A stretch of DNA of 64,000 bases, from IMG/VR virus record IMGVR_UViG_3300028025_000091, positions 96,001 to 160,000 of that record, one strand, 5' to 3'. The notes below the pieces were generated by a model. The model did no database searches. It saw nothing but the letters and a program-made list of their open reading frames with translations, and was not told the origin of the DNA. The position numbers and the translations under genes are program-made. Shown here piece by piece: positions 6,846-50,693 of this stretch. Origin of the DNA: a virus. Every line of letters begins with the position of its first letter. Positions within the stretch are counted from its first letter, which is position 1.

Positions 6846-7109
6846 ATGGCTGGACCTTTTGATTTAACGGGCCAAAATATAGAGACAACATATCAGAGGG
6901 TTCTACAAACTGATGGAGTTAACATATATGATGGTACAGGATCACTTTTTGTGGTCTCGGGGTCTGGAGGCAACATCAATACCAGTTCATTTGCAACTAC
7001 GGGTTCAAACATTTTTATAGGAAACCAAACAGTAACAGGAAGCATTTCGGTAACAAATTCCGTGACTGCTTCCTACTTTGTTGGTACAATCGATGGAGGT
7101 ACATTTTAA
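6846..7109 (+). CDS. Small virion/tail-associated protein
   Basis: SFATTGSNIFIGNQTVTGS fibre-like motif; ends IDGGTF like 5577..5942. Confidence 0.5.
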   Translation: MAGPFDLTGQNIETTYQRVLQTDGVNIYDGTGSLFVVSGSGGNINTSSFATTGSNIFIGNQTVTGSISVTNSVTASYFVGTIDGGTF

Positions 7110-7123
7110 AATATTTATAATTA

Positions 7124-10100
7124 ATGAGCACAATAATAACAAGAAATAGCGCAACATCAGGAAGTACTCCTTCTTCACTTGTACAAGGTGAATTAGCAAT
7201 CAATGTAACTGATGGTCGTTTATTCTATGGTTCGGGTTCTGGAAATATTGTAAAAGAATTTACTGGAAGTGCTAGTGGTGGAACAATTGATACTGGTTCA
7301 TTTGTAACGACTTCATCATTTAATGCTTATACTGGTTCTAATACGTCTCAATTCGCAGGAACTGCGTCATATGCTACAACAGCATCGTATGCTTTAAACG
7401 CTTTAAGTGCTTCTTATGCCTTAACAGCATCATTTATTACTGCTTCAAATGTTTATGGACCTTTTGGTTCAAACAGTATTGTTTCTGCATCATATGCTGC
7501 TACTGCTTCATATGCAACTACAACCTCAGATATTTTAGTATTAGTTAAAAACCAAACTGGGGACACTATTGCAAAAGGTGTTGTAGTTCGAATTACAGGT
7601 TCAAACACATCTAGTGATATCCCTCGTATTGTAACAGCATCTTATGAAAATGATAACAATTCTGCAAATACTTTAGGTATTACCAACCAATCCATTGCAA
7701 ATGGAGACGATGGTTATGTAATGACCGAAGGAATCTTACTTGGAATTGATACAAATGCATTTATTTCAGGTCAGTTAATTTATCTAGGTGCAACAGGATC
7801 CATTATAGGATATGCACCTCAAGCACCTTTACATAATGTTCGTTTAGGTGAAGTTGTTCGTCAACAATCTAATAATGGTTCAATTTATGTTCGTATAGAC
7901 AATGGATATGAATTAGAAGAATTACATGATGTACGAATCACTAGCGCTTCTTCAGGTGACTTATTAATCCGTTCAGCTAGTGTTTGGATTAATTCCAAAC
8001 AACTTTCAGGTTCATATGGCTTAACAGGTAGTTTAACTGCTACTTCATTTACAGGAAGTTTATTTGGAACTTCAAGTTGGGCAAATAATGCTCAAACGTC
8101 TCAAACTTCTAGTTATGTTTTAAATGCAATAAGTGCTTCATATTCTCAAACAGCATCATATCTAAATACACTTAATCAAGATTTAACATTTAATGGAAAT
8201 CTAACATTAAATGGTACTGCATCAATCTCATTTTTAAATGTGGCTTATGAATCTGCTTCTGTAATATACTCAAGTGGTTCAAACCAATTTGGAGATGCTT
8301 CAAACGACGTTCAAACGCTTTGGGGAACAGTTGATGTAAAAACAGGTCCTGTTTTAGTAACTGGATCTTTAAATGTATCTGGAGGTATAACAGGTAGTTT
8401 GCTTGGAACTTCTTCATATGCTGTTCAATCATTGTCTAGTTCATATGCTCAAACAGCTTCATATGTTCAAAACGCTCAAACAGCTTCTTATGTTTTAAAT
8501 GCTGTTTCAAGTTCATATGCATCAAATGCTTTAAGTGCTTCTTATGCTGTAACCTCTTCATATTCAAATAATTCAACTAGTGCTTCATATGCAATTAATT
8601 CTACAACAGCACAAACTGCTAGTTATGTTTTAAATGCAGTAAGCGCCTCTTATGCTACAACGGCATCATATTATGGAGGAAGTGTTATAAGTGCTTCATA
8701 TGCTGCAACTGCTTCATATGTTCAAAACGCTCAAACGGCATCGTATGTTTTAAATGCTATTTCAAGTTCATATGCATTAAGTGCTTCTTATTCTACAACT
8801 TCATCATATTCAAATAATTCAACTAGTGCGTCATATGCAATCAATGCTACAACATCACAAACCGCTAGTTATGTTTTAAATGCAATAAGTGCTTCATATG
8901 CTACTCAAGCATTATCAAGTTCATTTTCTTCAACTGCTTCTTATTATGGTGGAAATGTTGTAAGTGCCTCATATGCAACAACCGCTTCATATGTACAAAA
9001 TGCTATAAGTGCCTCATATGCTACAAACGCATCTAGTGCTTCTGTCTTAGACCTATACAGTATTACTTCCAATACAAATAGCTACTTACTCTTTTCAAAT
9101 ACAATAGCTGCTACGGGACAAATTGTAGGAGGGGATAATGATTTACGATATAACTCTAGTACAAATACATTAACAGCAGTTAATATTTCTGCATCAAGTT
9201 TAACAGGTTCTTTATTTGGAACTGCTTCATATGCTACACAAGCTATAACCGCTCAAACAGCTTCATACGTTATAAACTCTATAAGTTCTTCATACGCTCA
9301 GACAGCTTCGTATGTTTTAAATGCAATAAGTTCTTCATATACTACTCAAGCATTGTCAAGTTCGTATTCTATAACTGCTTCATACTCAACGTTAGCACAA
9401 ACTGCATCTTACGTTCTACAAGCTGTAAGTGCATCATATGCTGCAACTGCTTCATATGTTCAAACAGCACAAACAGCATCTTACGTTCAAAATGCTCAAA
9501 CAGCATCTTATGTTTTAAATGCCATAAGCGCTTCATATGCTTTAAATGCTACAACAGCACAAACTGCATCTTACGTTCAAAATGCTCAAACCGCTTCATA
9601 CGTTTTAAATGCTCAAACCGCTTCATATATTCAAACGGCTCAAACCGCATCATATGTTTTAAACGCTGTAAGTGCATCATATGTTACTCAAGCATTATCA
9701 AGTTCATTTGCATCAACTGCTTCATATGTTAATCCACTTAACCAAAATGTATTAATTACAGGTAGTGCTACAATTGGATCATCTAGTTTAGGTCCATTTG
9801 AAAATACTATAACTTTAGGAGCACGTGATAGTGCAAATGAAGGTGGTCAAATAGGATTCAATGCACCTGGAGGAACATATACATCTGCCTCATTTATTGA
9901 CAACTGGTCAAATTACGCCCGCATATTACGTGGAACAAATGCAAGTAGTACCGGATTGGTAGCTCAGTGGAACCTTCACACTCTTCAAATGCAGTTACCT
10001 GCATACACTAATGCATCATCATTTCCAGGAACCGCTACAGCTAATTTAGCAATTGACTCAGGTGGTAACATTATAACAGTATCAACAACCGGAGGATCAG

Positions 10101-22814: not shown

Positions 22815-23396
22815 ATGGAACGCACCAAAATTTACTATCTACATTACGGAAATAATGTACCAATTTATGTAGGAAAATCTAATAGAATCCAAGGTAGAAT
22901 ATCTAATCATAGAAAAAATTTCGGAAAAGATATTATAGCTGAAGTGTTAGATGATGTACCTTTACATGAATGGAAGTTTTGGGAGTGTTTTTGGATAGAA
23001 CAATTTAAACAATGGGGGTATGTTCTTTCAAACAAAAACAATGGTGGTGGAGGAGCTACTAAACAAAATTTTTCCCCTATTAGAAGTCAAAAAATAAGTA
23101 AAGCTAGACTAGGTAAACCTATGCCCCATAAAGGAAAAAAATTCACAGAAGAGCATAAAGAGAAAATTAAATCTACTCGAGGTTTTCTCCAATCCCGCCC
23201 AAATACTTGGACAAATCAACCAGTTCTTCAATATAATTTAGATGGAACTTTTATAAGGGAATTTGGTTCCCAATTAGAAGCTTCGTATTTTTTACAGGTA
23301 AAAGGAGATGGAGTTGGAGCCTGTTGTAGAGGTAAACAAAAATCTGCTTATGGTTACATATGGAAATTTAAAAATATAAAACAACAAGAACAATGA
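22815..23396 (+). CDS. Free-standing GIY-YIG homing endonuclease with NUMOD3/NUMOD1-like DNA-binding motifs
   Basis: KIYYL...IYVGKS..R...H; KGKKFTEEHKEKI; PVLQYNLDGTFIREF...CCRGKQKSAYGYIWKF. Confidence 0.85.
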   Translation: MERTKIYYLHYGNNVPIYVGKSNRIQGRISNHRKNFGKDIIAEVLDDVPLHEWKFWECFWIEQFKQWGYVLSNKNNGGGGATKQNFSPIRSQKISKARLGKPMPHKGKKFTEEHKEKIKSTRGFLQSRPNTWTNQPVLQYNLDGTFIREFGSQLEASYFLQVKGDGVGACCRGKQKSAYGYIWKFKNIKQQEQ

Positions 23397-23596
23397 AGAC
23401 AAAATTTTTACAAAGTGTAGAGAGATACACAAACACGAAAGGAAAAACAGGTTACAAAGCTATTTATAGCAATGGAATTGATTTTCAAACATTATTCTTC
23501 CCAATTAGAAATGGAGTAGATGTTATTAATATTCCTTCAATTATTAACTCAGTTCAAACAATAGATGATTTAGAAGCTATTGGAGCAGAACTTTAA
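23393..23596 (+). CDS. Small hypothetical protein (cassette)
   Basis: 67 aa between junction repeats. Confidence 0.6.
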   Translation: MKTKFLQSVERYTNTKGKTGYKAIYSNGIDFQTLFFPIRNGVDVINIPSIINSVQTIDDLEAIGAEL

Positions 23597-23608
23597 AAAA
23601 CAAGAACA

Positions 23609-23836
23609 ATGAAAGAGAAACAATTAACAGCAGTAGAACAAGCAGCAGTTGCTTTAAGATTATGGTCAAATGCTTGGAGGGAATTTGATAAGACAGGTAA
23701 AAATAAACCTGAATCATTTGAAAAAGTAATTGAACCGTTTATTAAAATGGAGAAGGAGTCACTCCAGGAATCCTATGTTAATGGATATGCAAAAACCAAA
23801 AAGATGCTTATACAATTTAAACAACAAGAACAATGA
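23609..23836 (+). CDS. Small hypothetical protein (cassette)
   Basis: 75 aa; TAVE...MEKE motifs; ends KQQEQ. Confidence 0.6.
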   Translation: MKEKQLTAVEQAAVALRLWSNAWREFDKTGKNKPESFEKVIEPFIKMEKESLQESYVNGYAKTKKMLIQFKQQEQ

Positions 23837-24081
23837 AAGAAATCCTTTATTTCTCAGCCAGCTGGTGTATGCCTTGTAAACGCTTCAAACCAGTTATGGA
23901 ACAGGTAGGACAAAGTATACCTGTACGATTTGTAAATGTAGATGAAGACCCTCAATTGTCTTCCCAATACAATATCAGAAGCGTACCTACATTGGTATTT
24001 TTAAAAGACGGACAAGAAGCAGACAAATCAATCGGAGTTTTAACGGAATCACAAGTAAAAGAAAAATGGAATCTACTTTAG
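23833..24081 (+). CDS. Thioredoxin
   Basis: FSASWCMPCK, IRSVPT. Confidence 0.9.
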   Translation: MKEILYFSASWCMPCKRFKPVMEQVGQSIPVRFVNVDEDPQLSSQYNIRSVPTLVFLKDGQEADKSIGVLTESQVKEKWNLL

Positions 24082-40473: not shown

Positions 40474-40775
40474 GTAAATTAGAAGCATTATTTGATGCGG
40501 TAATCGTTAAGCCGCTTGAATTAGAAGAAACCCAATTTGGTTCAATCTTCATTCCAGATGCAGGAAAAGACAGAAACGAACAAGGAGAAGTAGTAGCAGT
40601 AGGCCCAGGATCAGAGTACGGAGGTATTGGATTTATTCCAACCCAAGTAAAAGTAGGAGATATTGTAATTTTGCCTACAATGGGATTCTCAAGATTGCAA
40701 TTCCAAGGAGATGAATACTATATCGGAAAAGAAAGAGAAATTTTAGCTAAAGTAAATAAAAAAGAAAATGAGTAA
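40470..40775 (+). CDS. groES: Co-chaperonin GroES
   Basis: LFDAVIVKP, GSIFIPD, GEVVAVGPG, VKVGD, EREILA; likely start ATG 40470. Confidence 0.9.
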   Translation: MSKLEALFDAVIVKPLELEETQFGSIFIPDAGKDRNEQGEVVAVGPGSEYGGIGFIPTQVKVGDIVILPTMGFSRLQFQGDEYYIGKEREILAKVNKKENE

Positions 40776-42405
40776 GAGAATTGAATTTGGAGCAGAAGCT
40801 CGAAAAAAGTTAGTTAAAGGTATTGACACTATTGCAGATGCAGTAGTAGCAACTTTAGGTCCAAACGGACGCAATGTTGTATACATTGAAAATGGAGTAG
40901 TTGTTTCAACAAAAGATGGTGTATCTGTAGCAAAACAGATTGTTTCATTGGAAGATCCAATTGAGGATTTAGGTGCTCAAATGGTAAAACAAGCAGCTAT
41001 CAAAACAGCTGACCATGCTGGAGATGGTACAACAACATCTACTTTGTTGGCACGCGAGTTAGTTAAAGGCGGTTTAACTAAATTAAACGAAGGAGCAAAT
41101 GCAGTTGAGATCAAACGTGGGATTGATGCAGGTGTAAAAGAAGTATTAGCTACACTTAAATCAAATTCAGAAAAAATTTCATCTGAAGAACAGTTAGAAC
41201 AAATTGCTACCATTTCAGCAAACAATGATCCTGAAGTAGGTAAATTGATCTCTCGTGCTATGGAAAAAGTAGGACGTGAAGGTGTAGTTTACATTGAAGA
41301 GTCTAAAACAGACGAAACATATTTGGAAGTTGTAGAAGGTATTCAATTTGAACGTGGTTACAAATCTCCATATTTTGTTACTAACAATAGTACAATGACA
41401 GCAGTTCTAAACGATTGTTATATCTTGTTAGCAGACCACCGTTTCAACCCAGTTAAAGAATTGGTTCACATTTTGGAAGGTGTAGCTCAAAGCGGAAAAT
41501 CATTATTGATCATCGCAGAAGATATCGATGGTGAAGCATTAGCAGCACTTATTGTAAACAAAATGCGTGGTACACTTAAAGTAGCTGCAGTTAAAGCACC
41601 TGACTTTGGTGAGCGTCGTAAATTGATCCTTGAAGATATTGCTATCTTAACTGGTGGTAAAGTATTTGACAAGGAAAAAGGAATGAAATTGGATAAATTT
41701 GATTTCGCTTGGTTAGGTAAAGCTCAAACAGTAACAGTTACTAAAGAAAAAACTACAATCGTAGATGGTGGTGGTGAAGAAGAAGCAATTACTTCAAGAG
41801 CAGAAGAACTTACAGCACAAATCGAAAAAGCTGCTACACCATTTGAAGCAGAAAAATTACAAGAACGTTTATCTAAATTTGTAGGTGGTGTTGCTTTGGT
41901 TCACGTAGGTGGAAGTACTGAAACCGAAATGAAAGAGAAAAAAGATCGTGTAGACGATGCTTTACACGCTACACAATGTGCCCTAGAAGATGGTATTGTA
42001 CCAGGTGGAGGCTCAGCTCTATTATATGCACGTGAAGGTATCACTTATTCAAAATCTGAATCAGATGATTTCAAATACGGTAAAAAATTAGTTTACAGAG
42101 CATGTGGTAAACCGTTTGAAACAATTTTACACAATGCAGGTTACGATGAGCGTGATATGTACCCAATCAACATGCAAATTGGTAAAGCCAAAGGTGTATG
42201 GAGCGGTTACAACATCAAAACCGAAACTATCGTTGACATGAAAGAAGCAGGTATTATCGATCCACATAAAGTGACTAAAAATGCACTTATGAACGCAGCT
42301 TCAATTGCCGGAACAATCCTATTAACAGAATGTACAATCGTTGATACTCCAGAAGATAAAAAAGAAGGTGGATTTGATCCTTCTATGATGGCTGGAATGA
42401 TGTAA
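40768..42405 (+). CDS. groEL: Chaperonin GroEL
   Basis: TLGPNGRNV, TKDGVSVAK, GDGTTTST, KAPDFGERRK, GIVPGGG, MMAGMM tail. Confidence 0.97.
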   Translation: MSKRIEFGAEARKKLVKGIDTIADAVVATLGPNGRNVVYIENGVVVSTKDGVSVAKQIVSLEDPIEDLGAQMVKQAAIKTADHAGDGTTTSTLLARELVKGGLTKLNEGANAVEIKRGIDAGVKEVLATLKSNSEKISSEEQLEQIATISANNDPEVGKLISRAMEKVGREGVVYIEESKTDETYLEVVEGIQFERGYKSPYFVTNNSTMTAVLNDCYILLADHRFNPVKELVHILEGVAQSGKSLLIIAEDIDGEALAALIVNKMRGTLKVAAVKAPDFGERRKLILEDIAILTGGKVFDKEKGMKLDKFDFAWLGKAQTVTVTKEKTTIVDGGGEEEAITSRAEELTAQIEKAATPFEAEKLQERLSKFVGGVALVHVGGSTETEMKEKKDRVDDALHATQCALEDGIVPGGGSALLYAREGITYSKSESDDFKYGKKLVYRACGKPFETILHNAGYDERDMYPINMQIGKAKGVWSGYNIKTETIVDMKEAGIIDPHKVTKNALMNAASIAGTILLTECTIVDTPEDKKEGGFDPSMMAGMM

Positions 42406-44797: not shown

Positions 44798-44828
44798 GCT
44801 TGCCTAGTGCAAGCCTTTTTTGTATAAT
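44798..44828 (+). terminator. Terminator hairpin nested in a class-1 promoter
   Basis: GCTTGC-CTAGT-GCAAGC + T-run; CTTGC at 44799, TATAAT at 44823. Confidence 0.65.
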
Positions 44829-44834
44829 ACGGTT

Positions 44835-45743
44835 ATGAAAGAAAATACGTTATATGTAGAACGTTTTCGTCCTACCGAACTGCAATATTATGTTGGTAAC
44901 GAAAACATTAAAGAGACAATCCAAAAATACCTAGACCAAGGTGATATCCAAAACTTCATCTTCTATGGTCCTGCAGGTACAGGTAAAACTACCCTAGCAA
45001 AAATTATCGTTAAAAATCTAGACTGCGATTATCTTTATATAAACGCATCTGATGAAAATGGAATCGATACTATTCGAGAGAAAGTAAAAGGATTCGCTAG
45101 TGCTGCATCTTGGAAAGGTATTAAAGTAGTAATTCTAGATGAAGCAGATTTCATTACAATCCAGGGACAAGCCGCTTTACGAAATGTAATTGAAACATTC
45201 TCCCGCTCAACTCGATTTATCTTAACCTGTAACTTTGTAGAGCGAATTATTGACCCACTCCAATCACGTTGCCAGGTACTTAAAATTGTACCACCAACAA
45301 AAATGGATGTGTACAATCATTTAGTTTGGATATTGGAGGATCAATTATCTATTGAATACTATCCCGATGGTTTAAAAGCACTCATATTAAAATACTATCC
45401 TGATATGCGTAAGATGTTAAACGTTTTACAAATGTCTGTAAAAGATGGTATTGTTGAATTTGACGAAACCGTTTTGACCTCAAACAACTATGTCAAAGAT
45501 GTATTGAAAGAGCTAGCAGGTAAGAAAAATTGGATTGCCATTAGACAGATTATAGCAGATTCAAACGTTAAGGATTTTGAAGAACTATATCGCACCCTAT
45601 TCGAATACGCTCCCAAATACGCCCCAGGCAAGGAAGGATCAATCACAATCATATTAAACGAGCATTTGTATCAAGCAAATTTCCGAATTGATAAAGAAAT
45701 TAATGTAATGTCTGCAATTGCAAAAATTATAGAAGTGATATGA
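44835..45743 (+). CDS. Clamp loader AAA+ subunit (gp44/RFC-small-like)
   Basis: VERFRP, GPAGTGKTT, INASDE, ILDEAD, SRC, YPDMR; likely start ATG 44835. Confidence 0.92.
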   Translation: MKENTLYVERFRPTELQYYVGNENIKETIQKYLDQGDIQNFIFYGPAGTGKTTLAKIIVKNLDCDYLYINASDENGIDTIREKVKGFASAASWKGIKVVILDEADFITIQGQAALRNVIETFSRSTRFILTCNFVERIIDPLQSRCQVLKIVPPTKMDVYNHLVWILEDQLSIEYYPDGLKALILKYYPDMRKMLNVLQMSVKDGIVEFDETVLTSNNYVKDVLKELAGKKNWIAIRQIIADSNVKDFEELYRTLFEYAPKYAPGKEGSITIILNEHLYQANFRIDKEINVMSAIAKIIEVI

Positions 45744-45943
45744 AACACCTATTAAGATATACTCTTTCGTGGATATCTCAAAATTTGGCTGTACCTTTCT
45801 GGACAATCGGACATATCCACTTGATGACAACAATATATGCTGACATATATGAAATCATAATGTCGCTTGGATTAAACCTAATTGTAGCAGCTGGATTTAT
45901 AGCTGACTTTATAGATTATAGAAAAGAAAAAACAAATAAATAA
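45740..45943 (+). CDS. Small membrane protein
   Basis: Hydrophobic 67 aa; ends KEKTNK. Confidence 0.6.
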   Translation: MKHLLRYTLSWISQNLAVPFWTIGHIHLMTTIYADIYEIIMSLGLNLIVAAGFIADFIDYRKEKTNK

Positions 45944-45956
45944 AACAACAAGAACA

Positions 45957-46136
45957 ATGAATAAAATAGAAAGAGCAATCTATGATGTAAAACTACACAT
46001 AGCAAATAAACAAAGTCAATTTGAAATCTTAAAAGCACAACTTGTTACATTGGAAGCTGTGTTAAAAACTATGGAATTAATACGGGAAGATGATTCAATA
46101 CCACACGAAGTATATAAATCAGAAGCAGATTTATAA
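45957..46136 (+). CDS. Small coiled-coil-like hypothetical protein (59 aa, not in track; cassette)
   Basis: MNKIERAIYDVKLHIANKQSQFEILKAQL...SEADL starting at the ATG inside the junction repeat. Confidence 0.6.
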   Translation: MNKIERAIYDVKLHIANKQSQFEILKAQLVTLEAVLKTMELIREDDSIPHEVYKSEADL

Positions 46137-46156
46137 ACTATTAAACAACAAGAATA

Positions 46157-46501
46157 ATGAATAAAGAATTTGTGCCTTATGAGTTGGCTTTAAAACTCAA
46201 ACAACTTGGCTTTGATGAGCCTTGTATTGCAACACATGGATATTTAGAATTATACATAAATACTGATGATGGACATCTTAAAGCACCACTATTCCAACAA
46301 GTATTTAGATGGTTTAGGGATGTGCATGGACATAATGGAATTGTTGAGGGTTGCAAAAAGCATGGTTTTGAATGGTGTATATTTCCTGATATGGAACATT
46401 ACATAAAACCACCAAATAATTTTAACACCTACGAAGAAGCAGAACTTGCTTGTCTTGAGAAGCTAATTGAGATTGTAGAAACTAAAAAACAAGAACAATG
46501 A
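46157..46501 (+). CDS. Hypothetical phage protein (cassette)
   Basis: EFVPYELALKLKQLGFDEPC...APLFQQVFRWFR...TYEEAE; ends KKQEQ. Confidence 0.65.
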   Translation: MNKEFVPYELALKLKQLGFDEPCIATHGYLELYINTDDGHLKAPLFQQVFRWFRDVHGHNGIVEGCKKHGFEWCIFPDMEHYIKPPNNFNTYEEAELACLEKLIEIVETKKQEQ

Positions 46502-46683
46502 AAACAGCAGTAGAATTTTATAGAGAAGAATTAAATGCTTTGGTTAGCTTTAAAGAATCCAAATATAAAACGGAACAAGAAATTTTTGAACAAGCCAAAG
46601 AAATGGAGAATAAATTTATTGAAGACTATAAGATATATAAAAAGTATTGGGAAATAACAGCTAAATTATCAATTAAAAAATAA
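46498..46683 (+). CDS. Small hypothetical protein (cassette)
   Basis: MKTAVE...EQAKEME motifs. Confidence 0.6.
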   Translation: MKTAVEFYREELNALVSFKESKYKTEQEIFEQAKEMENKFIEDYKIYKKYWEITAKLSIKK

Positions 46684-46694
46684 AACAAAATAAA

Positions 46695-47216
46695 ATGGAA
46701 ACAAGAAAAAGCAAAGTAACAATTAAGGATGCAGTACATAATGATTATTACTGCCCCATCCCATTAGATGTATTTCCTAATTATATGGGAATAAATTTAG
46801 TAAGTGTTGACTCAGTAGAATGGGTCAAACAAGAAGACGGACAGTTAGTCACATTAACAGTGAACTTTATTCCAAACAATGACGGAACAATTGAAGAAAT
46901 TGCTGAAGAATTTTATTCTGAACAATCAAAAGCTTACGAAGATGCAACAGAACCTATGTTTGATAATTCAAGATATTTAGTTGCAGGTTTTATTGATGGA
47001 GCTAAATGGCAACAAGAACAAGCCAAACAAATGGAGAAAGAGCATCGAGAAACCCATAAGTACACTGAATTTGATATAATTAATGCATTTGAATATGGGT
47101 GGAATCAATATGGGTGGAATAAACAACAATATGGTATAATGGATGAAGATAAGATACATCGAATACAAAAAAGGCTTATACAATCCCTCAATGAAACTAA
47201 ACAACAAGAACAATGA
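46695..47216 (+). CDS. Mosaic hypothetical protein (cassette)
   Basis: Contains GAKWQQEQ, QAKQMEKE modules; ends KQQEQ. Confidence 0.6.
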   Translation: METRKSKVTIKDAVHNDYYCPIPLDVFPNYMGINLVSVDSVEWVKQEDGQLVTLTVNFIPNNDGTIEEIAEEFYSEQSKAYEDATEPMFDNSRYLVAGFIDGAKWQQEQAKQMEKEHRETHKYTEFDIINAFEYGWNQYGWNKQQYGIMDEDKIHRIQKRLIQSLNETKQQEQ

Positions 47217-47560
47217 AAACAACAGTAGAATACAAATACCCAGTAGGTGATTTTTTAAGCGGATTTTCTGAGGATAAAAATAATCCATGTGACTATGAAT
47301 TAGAATGCCAAAGAATGGTAATTAGAGGTGTAGAATATTTTGACCAACACCCAGAACTATTTGATTTAATAACAACTACAAATGTGAAGACTTCTGATGA
47401 TGTTATGAAACCTATGATTGAGTATATGTGTTTAAATGAGGAAAACCCAGAAGAATCAGAAGGTCAAACAGGTGCAATGGTAGCACATACAGTTAAAGTA
47501 GCTTATCATGCTAAAAAAATGGGTTGGGAAACATATATTCAAAAGATAACAGAAAAATAA
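47213..47560 (+). CDS. Hypothetical protein (cassette)
   Basis: 115 aa between junction repeats. Confidence 0.6.
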   Translation: MKTTVEYKYPVGDFLSGFSEDKNNPCDYELECQRMVIRGVEYFDQHPELFDLITTTNVKTSDDVMKPMIEYMCLNEENPEESEGQTGAMVAHTVKVAYHAKKMGWETYIQKITEK

Positions 47561-47572
47561 ACAACAAGAACA

Positions 47573-47944
47573 ATGAGTAAAGGAACATTCAAGGTTATTC
47601 CAATAGAAATATATTGCACAGAACTAGTAGTATCAATTGGACAGACAGATGACGAAATCTTTGATGAGTGTAAGAAACGTTGGGAATGGGATAAATATGA
47701 AAGTGTAGTAATTTCATCAGTATCAAGCCAGAGCCTAGCCAATTTCTCCAGCAACTCAAAGATGTTTATGATCCGGTTTAAGGAAAAGGAACCTAAGGAT
47801 GGATTGATTGCACATGAAGCATTCCATGCCGCCTTTAGGATACTTAATTCGATTGGACTCAATCCAAGCTATGAAACCGAAGAAGCCTATGCTTACTTGT
47901 TAGATTACATCGTTAATAAAATAAAAGAAAAAACAAATAAATAA
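47573..47944 (+). CDS. HExxH metallopeptidase-like protein (cassette)
   Basis: IAHEAFHAA...EEAYAYL; ends KEKTNK. Confidence 0.6.
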   Translation: MSKGTFKVIPIEIYCTELVVSIGQTDDEIFDECKKRWEWDKYESVVISSVSSQSLANFSSNSKMFMIRFKEKEPKDGLIAHEAFHAAFRILNSIGLNPSYETEEAYAYLLDYIVNKIKEKTNK

Positions 47945-47949
47945 CACAT

Positions 47950-48195
47950 ATGAACCAACAACCAAAAATGAACATTGACTTCAAAAACACTACATCAGTA
48001 GAAGGTTTTGATGGAGGTAAATTATTCGGACAAGCAGTATTGATCCGTAAAATCTCAAAATTCTTAGTAGGAGCAGATGAAGATGCTTTAATTCCAATCC
48101 CAGTATTTTATTGCTTGGAATCGAAAAAAATCCTAGTAGATTCACTCCCACCAGAATTGAGAGAAGAATATAAAGATATTACTTTAGATGTCTAA
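47950..48195 (+). CDS. Hypothetical protein
   Basis: RKISKFLVG..EDALIPIPVFYC. Confidence 0.6.
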   Translation: MNQQPKMNIDFKNTTSVEGFDGGKLFGQAVLIRKISKFLVGADEDALIPIPVFYCLESKKILVDSLPPELREEYKDITLDV

Positions 48196-48619
48196 GAAAC
48201 AGATAAAAGATATTTGGGGGTGGTTGAATGAAATCACCCTTTATAAAACACCTGTAGAAAACATTTCCGAGGAATCATGGGATAAATGGAACTCTTACAT
48301 GATACATCGATATGTATCTATGAATATAAATTATGTTGAGCTAGCTAATTATGTTCAAACTCTGCCTTACGAGAACAAGCAACAAACATATATAATTTAT
48401 AGAGAGATGATTCCAAAAACTAAAGTATTCTTGAAGTACATCAAGTCAAGAAACAAAAAACAGCCTGCAACGTTAGTAGAGTACGTAGCAAAACATTTTG
48501 AATGCAGCCTAGGTGAAGCTGAAGAGTATATTGATATTTTAAGAGAAGCAGGCACACGAAGTGTCCTCTATAGAATGGGAATTGAAGATAAAGAAATAGA
48601 AAAGTTATTAAAAAAATGA
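48188..48619 (+). CDS. Clamp loader small subunit (gp62-like)
   Basis: YMIHRYVSM, FLKYIK, VAKHFECS..EAEEY; near the gp44-like gene. Confidence 0.65.
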   Translation: MSKKQIKDIWGWLNEITLYKTPVENISEESWDKWNSYMIHRYVSMNINYVELANYVQTLPYENKQQTYIIYREMIPKTKVFLKYIKSRNKKQPATLVEYVAKHFECSLGEAEEYIDILREAGTRSVLYRMGIEDKEIEKLLKK

Positions 48620-49757: not shown

Positions 49758-50693
49758 ATGAAAAAGAAGTTACCTGCTTTACTAAAAGAAATTAAGAGCA
49801 AACAATTGCCTCAAATAGATTATGCAACCCAAAAATCGGTTTCATATTCCCAAATGTCCATGTTCAATGAGTGTCCTAAAAAATGGTCACTCCAATACAA
49901 AGAAGGACATAAACAATTCACTTCATCTATTCATACTGTTTTTGGAACGGCACTTCACGAAGTACTTCAAGCATACTTGACTGTAATGTATGAAAAAAGC
50001 GGAGCCGAAGCAGACCGTTTAAACATGTATGAAATGTTTGAAGATGCTTTACGTGAAGAATATAAAAAACAATACAAAGCAAACAACAACCTACACTTTT
50101 CAGCTCCAGACGAGCTTAGGGAATTTTTTGAGGATGGGATCGCTATTATAAGGGAATTTGCTAAAGACAAAAGTAAATATTTTTCTAAACGCGGTTGGCA
50201 TTTAGTGGGATGTGAGCTACCTTTGGTTCTGACCCCATCTTCAAAATTACCTAACGTTATGTTTCAAGGTTTTCTTGATTTAGTAATGTATCATGAACCA
50301 ACCAACAGAATTAAGATCATAGATATCAAAACAAGTAGACAAGGTTGGAGCAAAAAAGAAAAATCGGACGAAAACAAACAATTCCAACTTATCCTATACA
50401 AAAAATACTTTGCTGAAACATATAACATCCCAGTAGAGAATATAGAGATTGAGTTTATGATTGTAAAACGTAAGATATTTGAAAGCGAAAACTTTGTAAT
50501 CAAACGCGTACAATTATACAAACCTGCATCAGGTAAAGTAAAATTAAACAAAGTATCAAAATCTATTGAAGCCTTTGTAGAACAAGCATTTGATCAAAAC
50601 GGATACAAAGATGTTGAACATCAACCAACACCTCATAAAAATTGTAATTGGTGTCCATTTCATAAAACCCATTTATGTTCTGCGACTTTTTAA
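49758..50693 (+). CDS. PD-(D/E)XK nuclease, Cas4/RecB-like with Fe-S cysteines
   Basis: SYSQ...CP, FGTALHE, GFLDLV, IIDIKT, QLILY, CNWCPF....C. Confidence 0.85.
   Translation: MKKKLPALLKEIKSKQLPQIDYATQKSVSYSQMSMFNECPKKWSLQYKEGHKQFTSSIHTVFGTALHEVLQAYLTVMYEKSGAEADRLNMYEMFEDALREEYKKQYKANNNLHFSAPDELREFFEDGIAIIREFAKDKSKYFSKRGWHLVGCELPLVLTPSSKLPNVMFQGFLDLVMYHEPTNRIKIIDIKTSRQGWSKKEKSDENKQFQLILYKKYFAETYNIPVENIEIEFMIVKRKIFESENFVIKRVQLYKPASGKVKLNKVSKSIEAFVEQAFDQNGYKDVEHQPTPHKNCNWCPFHKTHLCSATF

Follow-up and report, generated by a model that had tools for sequence, protein, structure and literature searches.

Small accessory genes in the virus genome IMGVR_UViG_3300028025_000091 (IMG/VR; 173,789 bp, rated complete) are joined to one another by a nearly invariant sequence, T-AAACAACAAGAACA-ATG-A, that supplies the start codon of the downstream gene and can carry the stop codon of the upstream one. 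We analyzed a 64-kb window of this genome (bases 96001–160000), in which the motif forms two arrays, together with the remainder of the record and related contigs. We consider it likely that the motif is a standard stop/start junction for small accessory genes and, like the promoter-early stem-loops (PeSLs) of T4-type phages, a homologous linker. Coordinates are those of the window unless given as genome positions, and positions within the motif are counted with the A of ATG as 0.

An initial annotation of the window had reported five copies of a degenerate 18-mer, at 45943, 46143, 46484, 47199 and 47559, each following a T and each containing the ATG of the next gene. All five were recovered, together with three more at 23379, 23595 and 23819. 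The eight exact matches are all on the + strand and are split between array 2 (five at 45943–47576) and array 1 (three at 23379–23836), compared with no match in 100 dinucleotide-preserving shuffles of the window. The ATG of an open reading frame (ORF) lies inside each copy, and a T precedes at −15 or −16. Across the genome, in which nearly all genes are on the + strand, the 13-nt motif core has 18 exact copies, or 24 when one mismatch is allowed, all of them on the + strand and none on the − strand. The copies form five clusters (genome positions 0.1–0.8, 87.9–88.8, 119.4–119.8, 141.9–143.6 and 172.2–173.7 kb) of small genes without known function, placed between core genes such as gp44 and gp62. 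As had been proposed, the motif is confined to accessory arrays and does not mark core-gene junctions, apart from one thioredoxin-like gene described below: it heads 20 of the 237 called genes, all of 57–129 amino acids (aa). The remaining ~217 gene starts have a weak A-rich, G-poor context without a Shine–Dalgarno element, as in Bacteroidota. When matches to the 15 upstream positions were counted, the distribution was bimodal, with 18 genes at 14–15 matches, a peak at 5–7 for the ~217 others and almost none between. The motif is therefore a discrete element that does not grade into the other starts, and not the top end of a generic A-rich start context. The earlier observation is confirmed, and the phenomenon is larger than first described.

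The motif recurs in many other viral contigs. Its exact 17-mer was found in at least 113 IMG/VR contigs, and at least 59 contigs carry two to eight copies on the same strand, spaced 150–700 bp apart. Among the matches listed, 212 sites in 59 contigs define the extended consensus T-AAACAACAAGAACA-ATG-A-AA, with at least 92% conservation at every position from −15 to +3 and no conservation upstream of −21. The C, C, G and C at −11, −8, −5 and −2 and the T at −15 are as invariant as the motif adenines. Most of the listed multi-copy contigs belong to a different phage type with a single gene order: helicase/primase, NinG/Rap, Erf, exonuclease, a small P0001-like gene, the array and terminase. NinG/Rap, Erf and exonuclease genes stand just upstream of the array in 36 of the 59. 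The terminase of these Erf-type contigs is closest (53% at the amino acid level) to that of ~42-kb Flavobacterium psychrophilum phages, and only small proteins are common to these contigs and this genome. Since the motif is common to two unrelated phage lineages, a shared cassette pool is implied.

The motif-bearing uncultured phages probably infect Flavobacteriia. The motif is absent from the three cultured Flavobacterium phages examined (elemoA, snork6-2 and FpV9); a BLAST search of the motif against cultured phages returned chance matches only, for which low-complexity masking is a possible cause, and the 61-aa cassette of array 2 had no homologue in 50,697 phage records. Our search of the literature found no paper that reports the motif in such a setting. 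The 19-mer had 25 matches across 596 Gb of prokaryote genomes, about half of them in Bacteroidota, and no motif arrays were found in the bacterial genomes of that scan. As the 19-mer was only ever single there, a role as a host-gene signal was rejected.

Breakpoints between related genomes fall at the motif, as array 1 shows. This genome and contigs L003 and L226 have common flanks, with ~98% DNA identity on the side of an HNH-like gene and ~85% on the side of the thioredoxin-like gene, and each has a different cassette pair between them: genes of 67 and 75 aa here, two unrelated genes in L003 (stored on the − strand, with motif ATGs at 8503 and 7893) and genes of 39 and 30 aa in L226. Identity ends a few bases past the first motif ATG and returns at −15 of the last motif. 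In the window, copy 1 (23379–23396, +) lies at the end of the HNH-like ORF (22815–23396, +), which terminates within it as KQQEQ-stop, and its ATG at 23393 opens the 67-aa cassette. The ATG of copy 2 (23595–23612, +), at 23609, opens the 75-aa cassette, and copy 3 (23819–23836, +) supplies the start of the thioredoxin-like gene (23833–24081). The initial annotation had singled out this gene as the sole core exception, closing the array, and comparison with relatives bears this out: of 73 relatives with the gene, 71 have an ordinary leader, and the motif is present only in the two array-bearing contigs. The motif thus arrives with the array.

Array 2 is a ~2-kb insertion of six cassettes (45944–47914, +) that, as first reported, interrupts the clamp-loader region, with a gp44-like large subunit (44820–45743, +; phrog_168, E 5e-72) before it and a gp62-like small subunit (48188–48619, +; phrog_225) after it as conserved flanks. 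Its five motif copies, all on the + strand, lie at 45943–45960 (ATG 45957, opening a 59-aa cassette), 46143–46160 (T for C at −2; ATG 46157, 114 aa), 46484–46501 (ATG 46498, 61 aa), 47199–47216 (ATG 47213, 115 aa) and 47559–47576 (ATG 47573, 123 aa; phrog_1365, function unknown). The TAA of a conserved 67-aa ORF (45740–45943, +) occupies 45941–45943 (+) at the first copy, and the ORF upstream of the fifth stops at the in-frame TAA at −15. The 114-aa ORF (46157–46501, +) ends as KKQEQ-stop by ATGA overlap in the third copy, and a 173-aa ORF (46695–47216, +) as KQQEQ-stop in the fourth. The K(Q/K)QEQ-stop tail predicted for genes that read into the motif was found in four upstream ORFs of the window (22815–23396, 23609–23836, 46157–46501 and 46695–47216). 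Two parts of the initial description require amendment. The array is indeed joined by the motif at five junctions, but the junction at 46683/46695 within it holds a decayed copy only (46678–46697, +; motif no longer present), which precedes the 173-aa ORF. The genes between copies had been called unrelated; those starting at 46498 and 47213 have ~8 initial codons in common.

We compared this site in 80 relatives whose gp44-like protein is 73–96% identical. About 65 of them have gp44, the 67-aa ORF, directly followed by an 81-aa ORF (47950–48195, +, after the insertion site in this genome), and gp62 within 250–480 bp and without the motif. The segment 45944–47914 is wholly missing from L144, whose flanks have ~92% DNA identity to those here. 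An exact 22-bp direct repeat brackets the array, its left copy (45922–45943, +) forming the 3′ end of the 67-aa ORF and its right copy (47923–47944, +) the 3′ end of the last cassette; the empty site of L144 has the repeat once (position 7103). L154 is an intermediate in which one cassette, the 115-aa one (93% nucleotide identity), stands alone behind an exact motif. Seven further relatives (L147, L163, L169, L170, L177, L203 and L212) have unrelated inserts of 0.25–0.9 kb at the same junction, with no KQQEQ motif. Because relatives have such motif-less inserts, the site is a hotspot in its own right: the clamp-loader region of this phage group has a general hotspot for insertions at the junction between the 67-aa and 81-aa ORFs. 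The expectation that relatives would differ at the motif across gp44–gp62 was borne out only in part for the outer borders of array 2, and the motif is no requirement for insertion at this site.

Other arrays and other genomes repeat the pattern of array 1. At the array at genome position 87.9–88.8 kb, the flanks are conserved in L036 (88% and 96% nucleotide identity) and the cassettes differ, those of L036 having homologues in other arrays of this genome. Exchange also extends across lineages: a 67-aa cassette at genome positions 172879–173099 has 84% DNA identity to cassettes in the Erf-type contigs L088 (stored at 693–908, − strand) and L054 (stored at 1055–1275, − strand), with identity that starts and stops at motifs and unrelated flanks. 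Within this genome, the 75-aa cassette of array 1 (ATG 23609) is 85% identical in DNA, from motif to motif, to a cassette at genome positions 173077–173315. Gene content therefore changes exactly at the motif, as had been suggested, in the array 1 alleles, in L036 and in L088 and L054. Many alignment ends between contigs cluster at −15 and at +3 to +5, and the order of cassette families varies from array to array. When gene pairs with at least 70% protein identity were compared, the neighbor on the downstream side was homologous at 63% of motif-less junctions versus 9% of those where both junctions have the motif. Gene order breaks ~7 times more often at motif junctions. As a separate observation, a 651-bp unit of three cassettes forms a tandem repeat with 100% identity at genome positions 172641–173789; its borders lie at −15 of two motif copies and it reaches the contig end. 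It stems either from unequal crossing-over between motif copies or from the assembly.

At the RNA level, the motif resembles the Kozak-like, A-rich initiation regions of Bacteroidia (PMC6847099). In F. johnsoniae, A at −3, −6, −12 and −13 raises initiation, as determined by ribosome profiling and reporters (PMC6847099). The motif has adenines at −1, −3, −4, −6, −7, −9, −10 and −12 to −14 and hence all of these determinants, whereas ordinary host and phage genes have only a weak A preference. Low structure is also shared, since starts at motif copies are the least structured of this genome (mean unpaired probability 0.81 versus 0.61 for other starts, p = 1.5e-8). Two stop codons are built in: a TAA at −15, in the frame of the start codon, and a TGA that overlaps the ATG. 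At 226 sites, the upstream ORF ends at the TGA (ATGA overlap) in 47% and at the −15 TAA in 18%. Where the upstream ORF reads through −15, the T is still present in 94 of 106 sites, so it is not retained merely as part of a stop codon. Judged from sequence, the adenines, the low structure and the stop/start geometry fit the built-in translational start and coupler of the initial annotation. Two other candidate functions were rejected: the best duplex with Kordia 16S rRNA (−12.5 kcal/mol) was equalled by 27 of 300 shuffled motifs, and the frame that would need slippage at a TTTAAAC slippery site is unused by upstream ORFs. An Rfam search of 22500–49000 gave no match, and no local inverted repeat or hairpin was detected at any motif copy.

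The likely junction and linker would have two roles. On the mRNA, it would serve as an unstructured leader for Shine–Dalgarno-free translation, with A at −3, −6 and −12 to −14; the upstream gene would be stopped at TAA (−15) or at TGA (the ATGA overlap with its KQQEQ tail), and translation of the small gene that follows could then start or restart there. At the DNA level, these 18–21 bases recur at every junction, and general homologous recombination could therefore cross over between any two copies. Whole genes would thereby be gained, lost, duplicated, replaced or reordered in register, with a working start retained each time. Cassettes with an intact junction would spread further, both within a genome and between co-infecting phages, and this selection on single genes, combined with the role in translation, would hold the sequence almost constant. 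What the data show is where the motif occurs, how well it is conserved, how it is placed relative to coding sequence and that breakpoints fall at it; its effect on translation, the enzymes involved and the forces that maintain it are what we infer here. The probable enzymes are a RecA/UvsX-like recombinase in the T4-like phage and Erf with the exonuclease in the other lineage. No recombinase had been noticed in the window, and none was found there, although nucleases are present, namely the HNH-like ORF (22815–23396) and a PD-(D/E)XK exonuclease (49758–50693). Across the genome, our search for a recombinase or annealing protein yielded two RecA-superfamily ORFs and no serine recombinase, no Erf and no match to the tyrosine recombinase family PF00589, which matched all 14 control genomes. 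T4-type recombination is stated to need less than 50 bp of homology in the work on PeSLs (PMC2839356).

Several points weigh against this reading. A shared stretch of 18–21 bp is short for homologous recombination to be efficient. Insertion at gp44–gp62 occurs without the motif in several relatives, and the outer right border of array 2 is the 22-bp direct repeat, not a motif copy. The contrast of 63% versus 9% in neighbor conservation is confounded by the location of motif junctions in accessory regions and by the phylogenetic non-independence of the contigs. At array 1, a mobile HNH gene beside the array may itself drive exchange: the HNH-like (homing endonuclease) ORF has ~98% DNA identity in three contigs whose neighboring genes have only 80–85%, and it is missing from most of the 80 relatives, with a diverged copy and no array in L259 and L291. 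It looks to have been mobile recently, and it may create the breaks that make array 1 prone to exchange. Finally, the invariant C, C, G and C at −11, −8, −5 and −2 are unexplained by known translational determinants, and the non-A letters could mark a specific trans-acting reader.

Such a reader is the basis of an unlikely alternative in which the motif is the operator of a trans-acting factor, a T4 RegA-type repressor or a RegB-type endoribonuclease, that switches early small genes together, with crossovers as an unselected by-product. The invariance of −11, −8, −5, −2 and T−15 and the bimodal match distribution both speak for sequence-specific recognition beyond ribosome preference. A candidate reader is also at hand in the virus-only P0001 family, whose 87-aa member in this genome (48616–48879) follows gp62 and whose members immediately precede the motif arrays in 35 of the 59 listed contigs with multiple copies. 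Its invariant residues are D24, R37, G41, K44, Y45, W59, E66, D69 and Y73 (alignment A1), and its predicted structure is a three-helix fold of moderate confidence (pLDDT 74). However, P0001 homologues also occur in cultured Flavobacterium phages that lack the motif, and the family has no Pfam entry, no sequence or fold match in the PDB and no recognizable nucleic-acid-binding fold. The genome has no match to the RegA family PF01818, a weak negative since the control genomes were unmatched too, and no protein was found that is common to all motif-bearing contigs. An operator alone also leaves unexplained why the thioredoxin-like gene gains the motif only with the array.

Two further explanations fare worse. 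The initial annotation had likened the arrays to an integron, and a site-specific system in which a dedicated recombinase uses the motif as core site, with circular intermediates, would account for the precise borders, the single cassette orientation and the promoterless-looking cassettes, as well as for the exact 22-bp direct repeat around array 2, which resembles the outcome of one-crossover circle integration. It is very improbable all the same, given a genome rated complete with neither a tyrosine nor a serine recombinase, motif copies with neither an inverted repeat nor a hairpin, and array neighbors in the other lineage that are Erf, exonuclease and NinG, not integrases. The breakpoints, moreover, are not at one fixed phosphodiester, and homology sometimes continues 10–40 nt past the motif. 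The least credible explanation is that the motif is a promoter for a phage or host RNA polymerase before each small gene. Its ~20 conserved nucleotides in one orientation upstream of genes do recall single-subunit polymerase promoters, but close to half of the upstream ORFs extend across the motif into an overlap with the following ATG, an arrangement that implies co-transcription, and transcripts would have to begin at or within the start codon. Conservation is absent upstream of −21, a different promoter-like repeat (GGA-N20-WTCGTATATT) precedes the terminal array, and the −33/−7 promoter elements of Bacteroidota do not resemble the motif.

The original interpretation is thus supported in part, in its coupling and exchange of genes at one short sequence and not in its integron-like mechanism. 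An extension of the junction reading, possible but tentative, is that the motif is a universal adaptor for a pool of small genes across unrelated phage families of one host group, here the 174-kb T4-like myovirus lineage and the ~40-kb Erf-type phages, providing homologous capture and immediate translation and kept invariant mainly by selection for cassette mobility. If so, the adaptor would be a recombinase-free functional analogue of the integron. The motif arrays do share with integrons their same-orientation series of small, unrelated, promoterless-looking genes, a recurrent border site and a content that varies between relatives. Unlike integrons, they have no IntI-type integrase, no attC-type folded site and no attI/Pc platform. 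Because integrase and hairpin are both lacking, the motif array is not an integron, and the exchange fits homologous rather than site-specific recombination.

Among known systems, the PeSLs come nearest, as conserved regulatory repeats between ORFans of T4-type phages (PMC2839356, PMC4122927). Both are short regulatory repeats between small ORFans in hyperplastic regions of T4-like genomes. The borders of indels and replacements between close relatives lie inside the element, as they do here in array 1, L036 and L088/L054, and only partly in array 2, where the outer borders are not fully at the motif. In both, the element travels with its gene and keeps it expressed (in our case, as the sequence suggests), and general phage homologous recombination has been proposed. 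The PeSL authors themselves likened PeSLs to integrons, and mini-circles were shown for them (PMC2839356, PMC4122927). PeSLs differ in being ~100 bp long and in combining a terminator stem-loop, a sigma-70 early promoter and a Shine–Dalgarno sequence, so that each cassette is its own transcription unit. The motif described here, one fifth the size at 18–21 nt, has no early promoter and no GC-rich stem-loop terminator, appears to work through translation, includes the last codons of the gene before it (KQQEQ-stop) and is nearly unchanged in the unrelated Erf-type lineage.

The start-associated sequences (SAS) of cluster K mycobacteriophages (PMC3203893) are also short, conserved and asymmetric, immediately precede the start codon in some genes, which come from different families, nearly all in one orientation, and have an unproven function that is thought to be translational. 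They are 13 bp long (GGGATAGGAGCCC) with a Shine–Dalgarno-like core, in contrast to the different, G-poor sequence without a Shine–Dalgarno element found here. About half of the SAS copies have an extra 17-bp inverted repeat, and the copies are scattered, not arrayed, with no gene shuffling or embedded stops described (PMC3203893).

The arrays also bear on the modular theory of phage evolution, in which short conserved sequences at gene borders act as crossover points between unrelated modules, as the motif would. Such linker or boundary sequences reportedly go back to Susskind and Botstein (1978), Botstein (1980) and Clark et al. (2001). The gain and shuffling of small accessory genes in phages, including those for host takeover and anti-defence, is mostly ascribed to rare illegitimate recombination, and to our knowledge, apart from PeSLs, concrete examples of conserved linkers are few. 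Both PMC3029335 and PMC2839356 cite the concept, and linkers are rarely identifiable at mosaic joints (PMC3029335). The motif differs in being one explicit sequence at hundreds of single-gene joints in many contigs, a 21-nt linker at which relatives differ exactly. It would also represent a natural, highly conserved leader in Bacteroidia, which ignore Shine–Dalgarno sequences, and could offer a model for studying start and restart signals in these bacteria as well as a portable expression junction.

Further observations concern individual parts of these arrays. In array 2, the 5′ part shared by the cassettes at 46498 and 47213 comprises 39 bp at 95% identity. The 173-aa ORF contains an internal, in-frame motif-like stretch (…WQQEQAK…, 47010–47022), beyond which it is homologous both to part of a free-standing L036 cassette and to a module in the 61-aa cassette (46582–46610); this ORF may be a fusion at a decayed junction. 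Many Erf-type contigs (for example, L088, L002 and L016) have a second conserved stretch, …GGATAAGGGGTAAAAATTGCCA…, which takes in the P0001-like stop codon as well as the ~45 nt that separate this gene from the first motif copy and may be a promoter or regulatory site at the array head. In the cultured phage elemoA (L139, MT497075.1), many small early genes lie behind another recurring short leader (…AATAAGAT-ATG); standard junctions of a weaker kind may likewise exist in other groups of Flavobacterium phages.

Two promoter-like elements of the form GGA-N20-TTCGTATATT, at genome positions 172184–172243 and 775–825, flank the terminal array. L065 joins genome position 172243 to ~805 with a single such element and no array, from which it follows that the two contig ends adjoin on the phage map. 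The element belongs to a ~50–60-bp repeat family at 167–173 kb and 1–9 kb of the genome and does not occur in the window. The window also encodes a GroEL-like chaperonin (40768–42405; phrog_5725, E 2e-147), whose gene immediately precedes those for replication.

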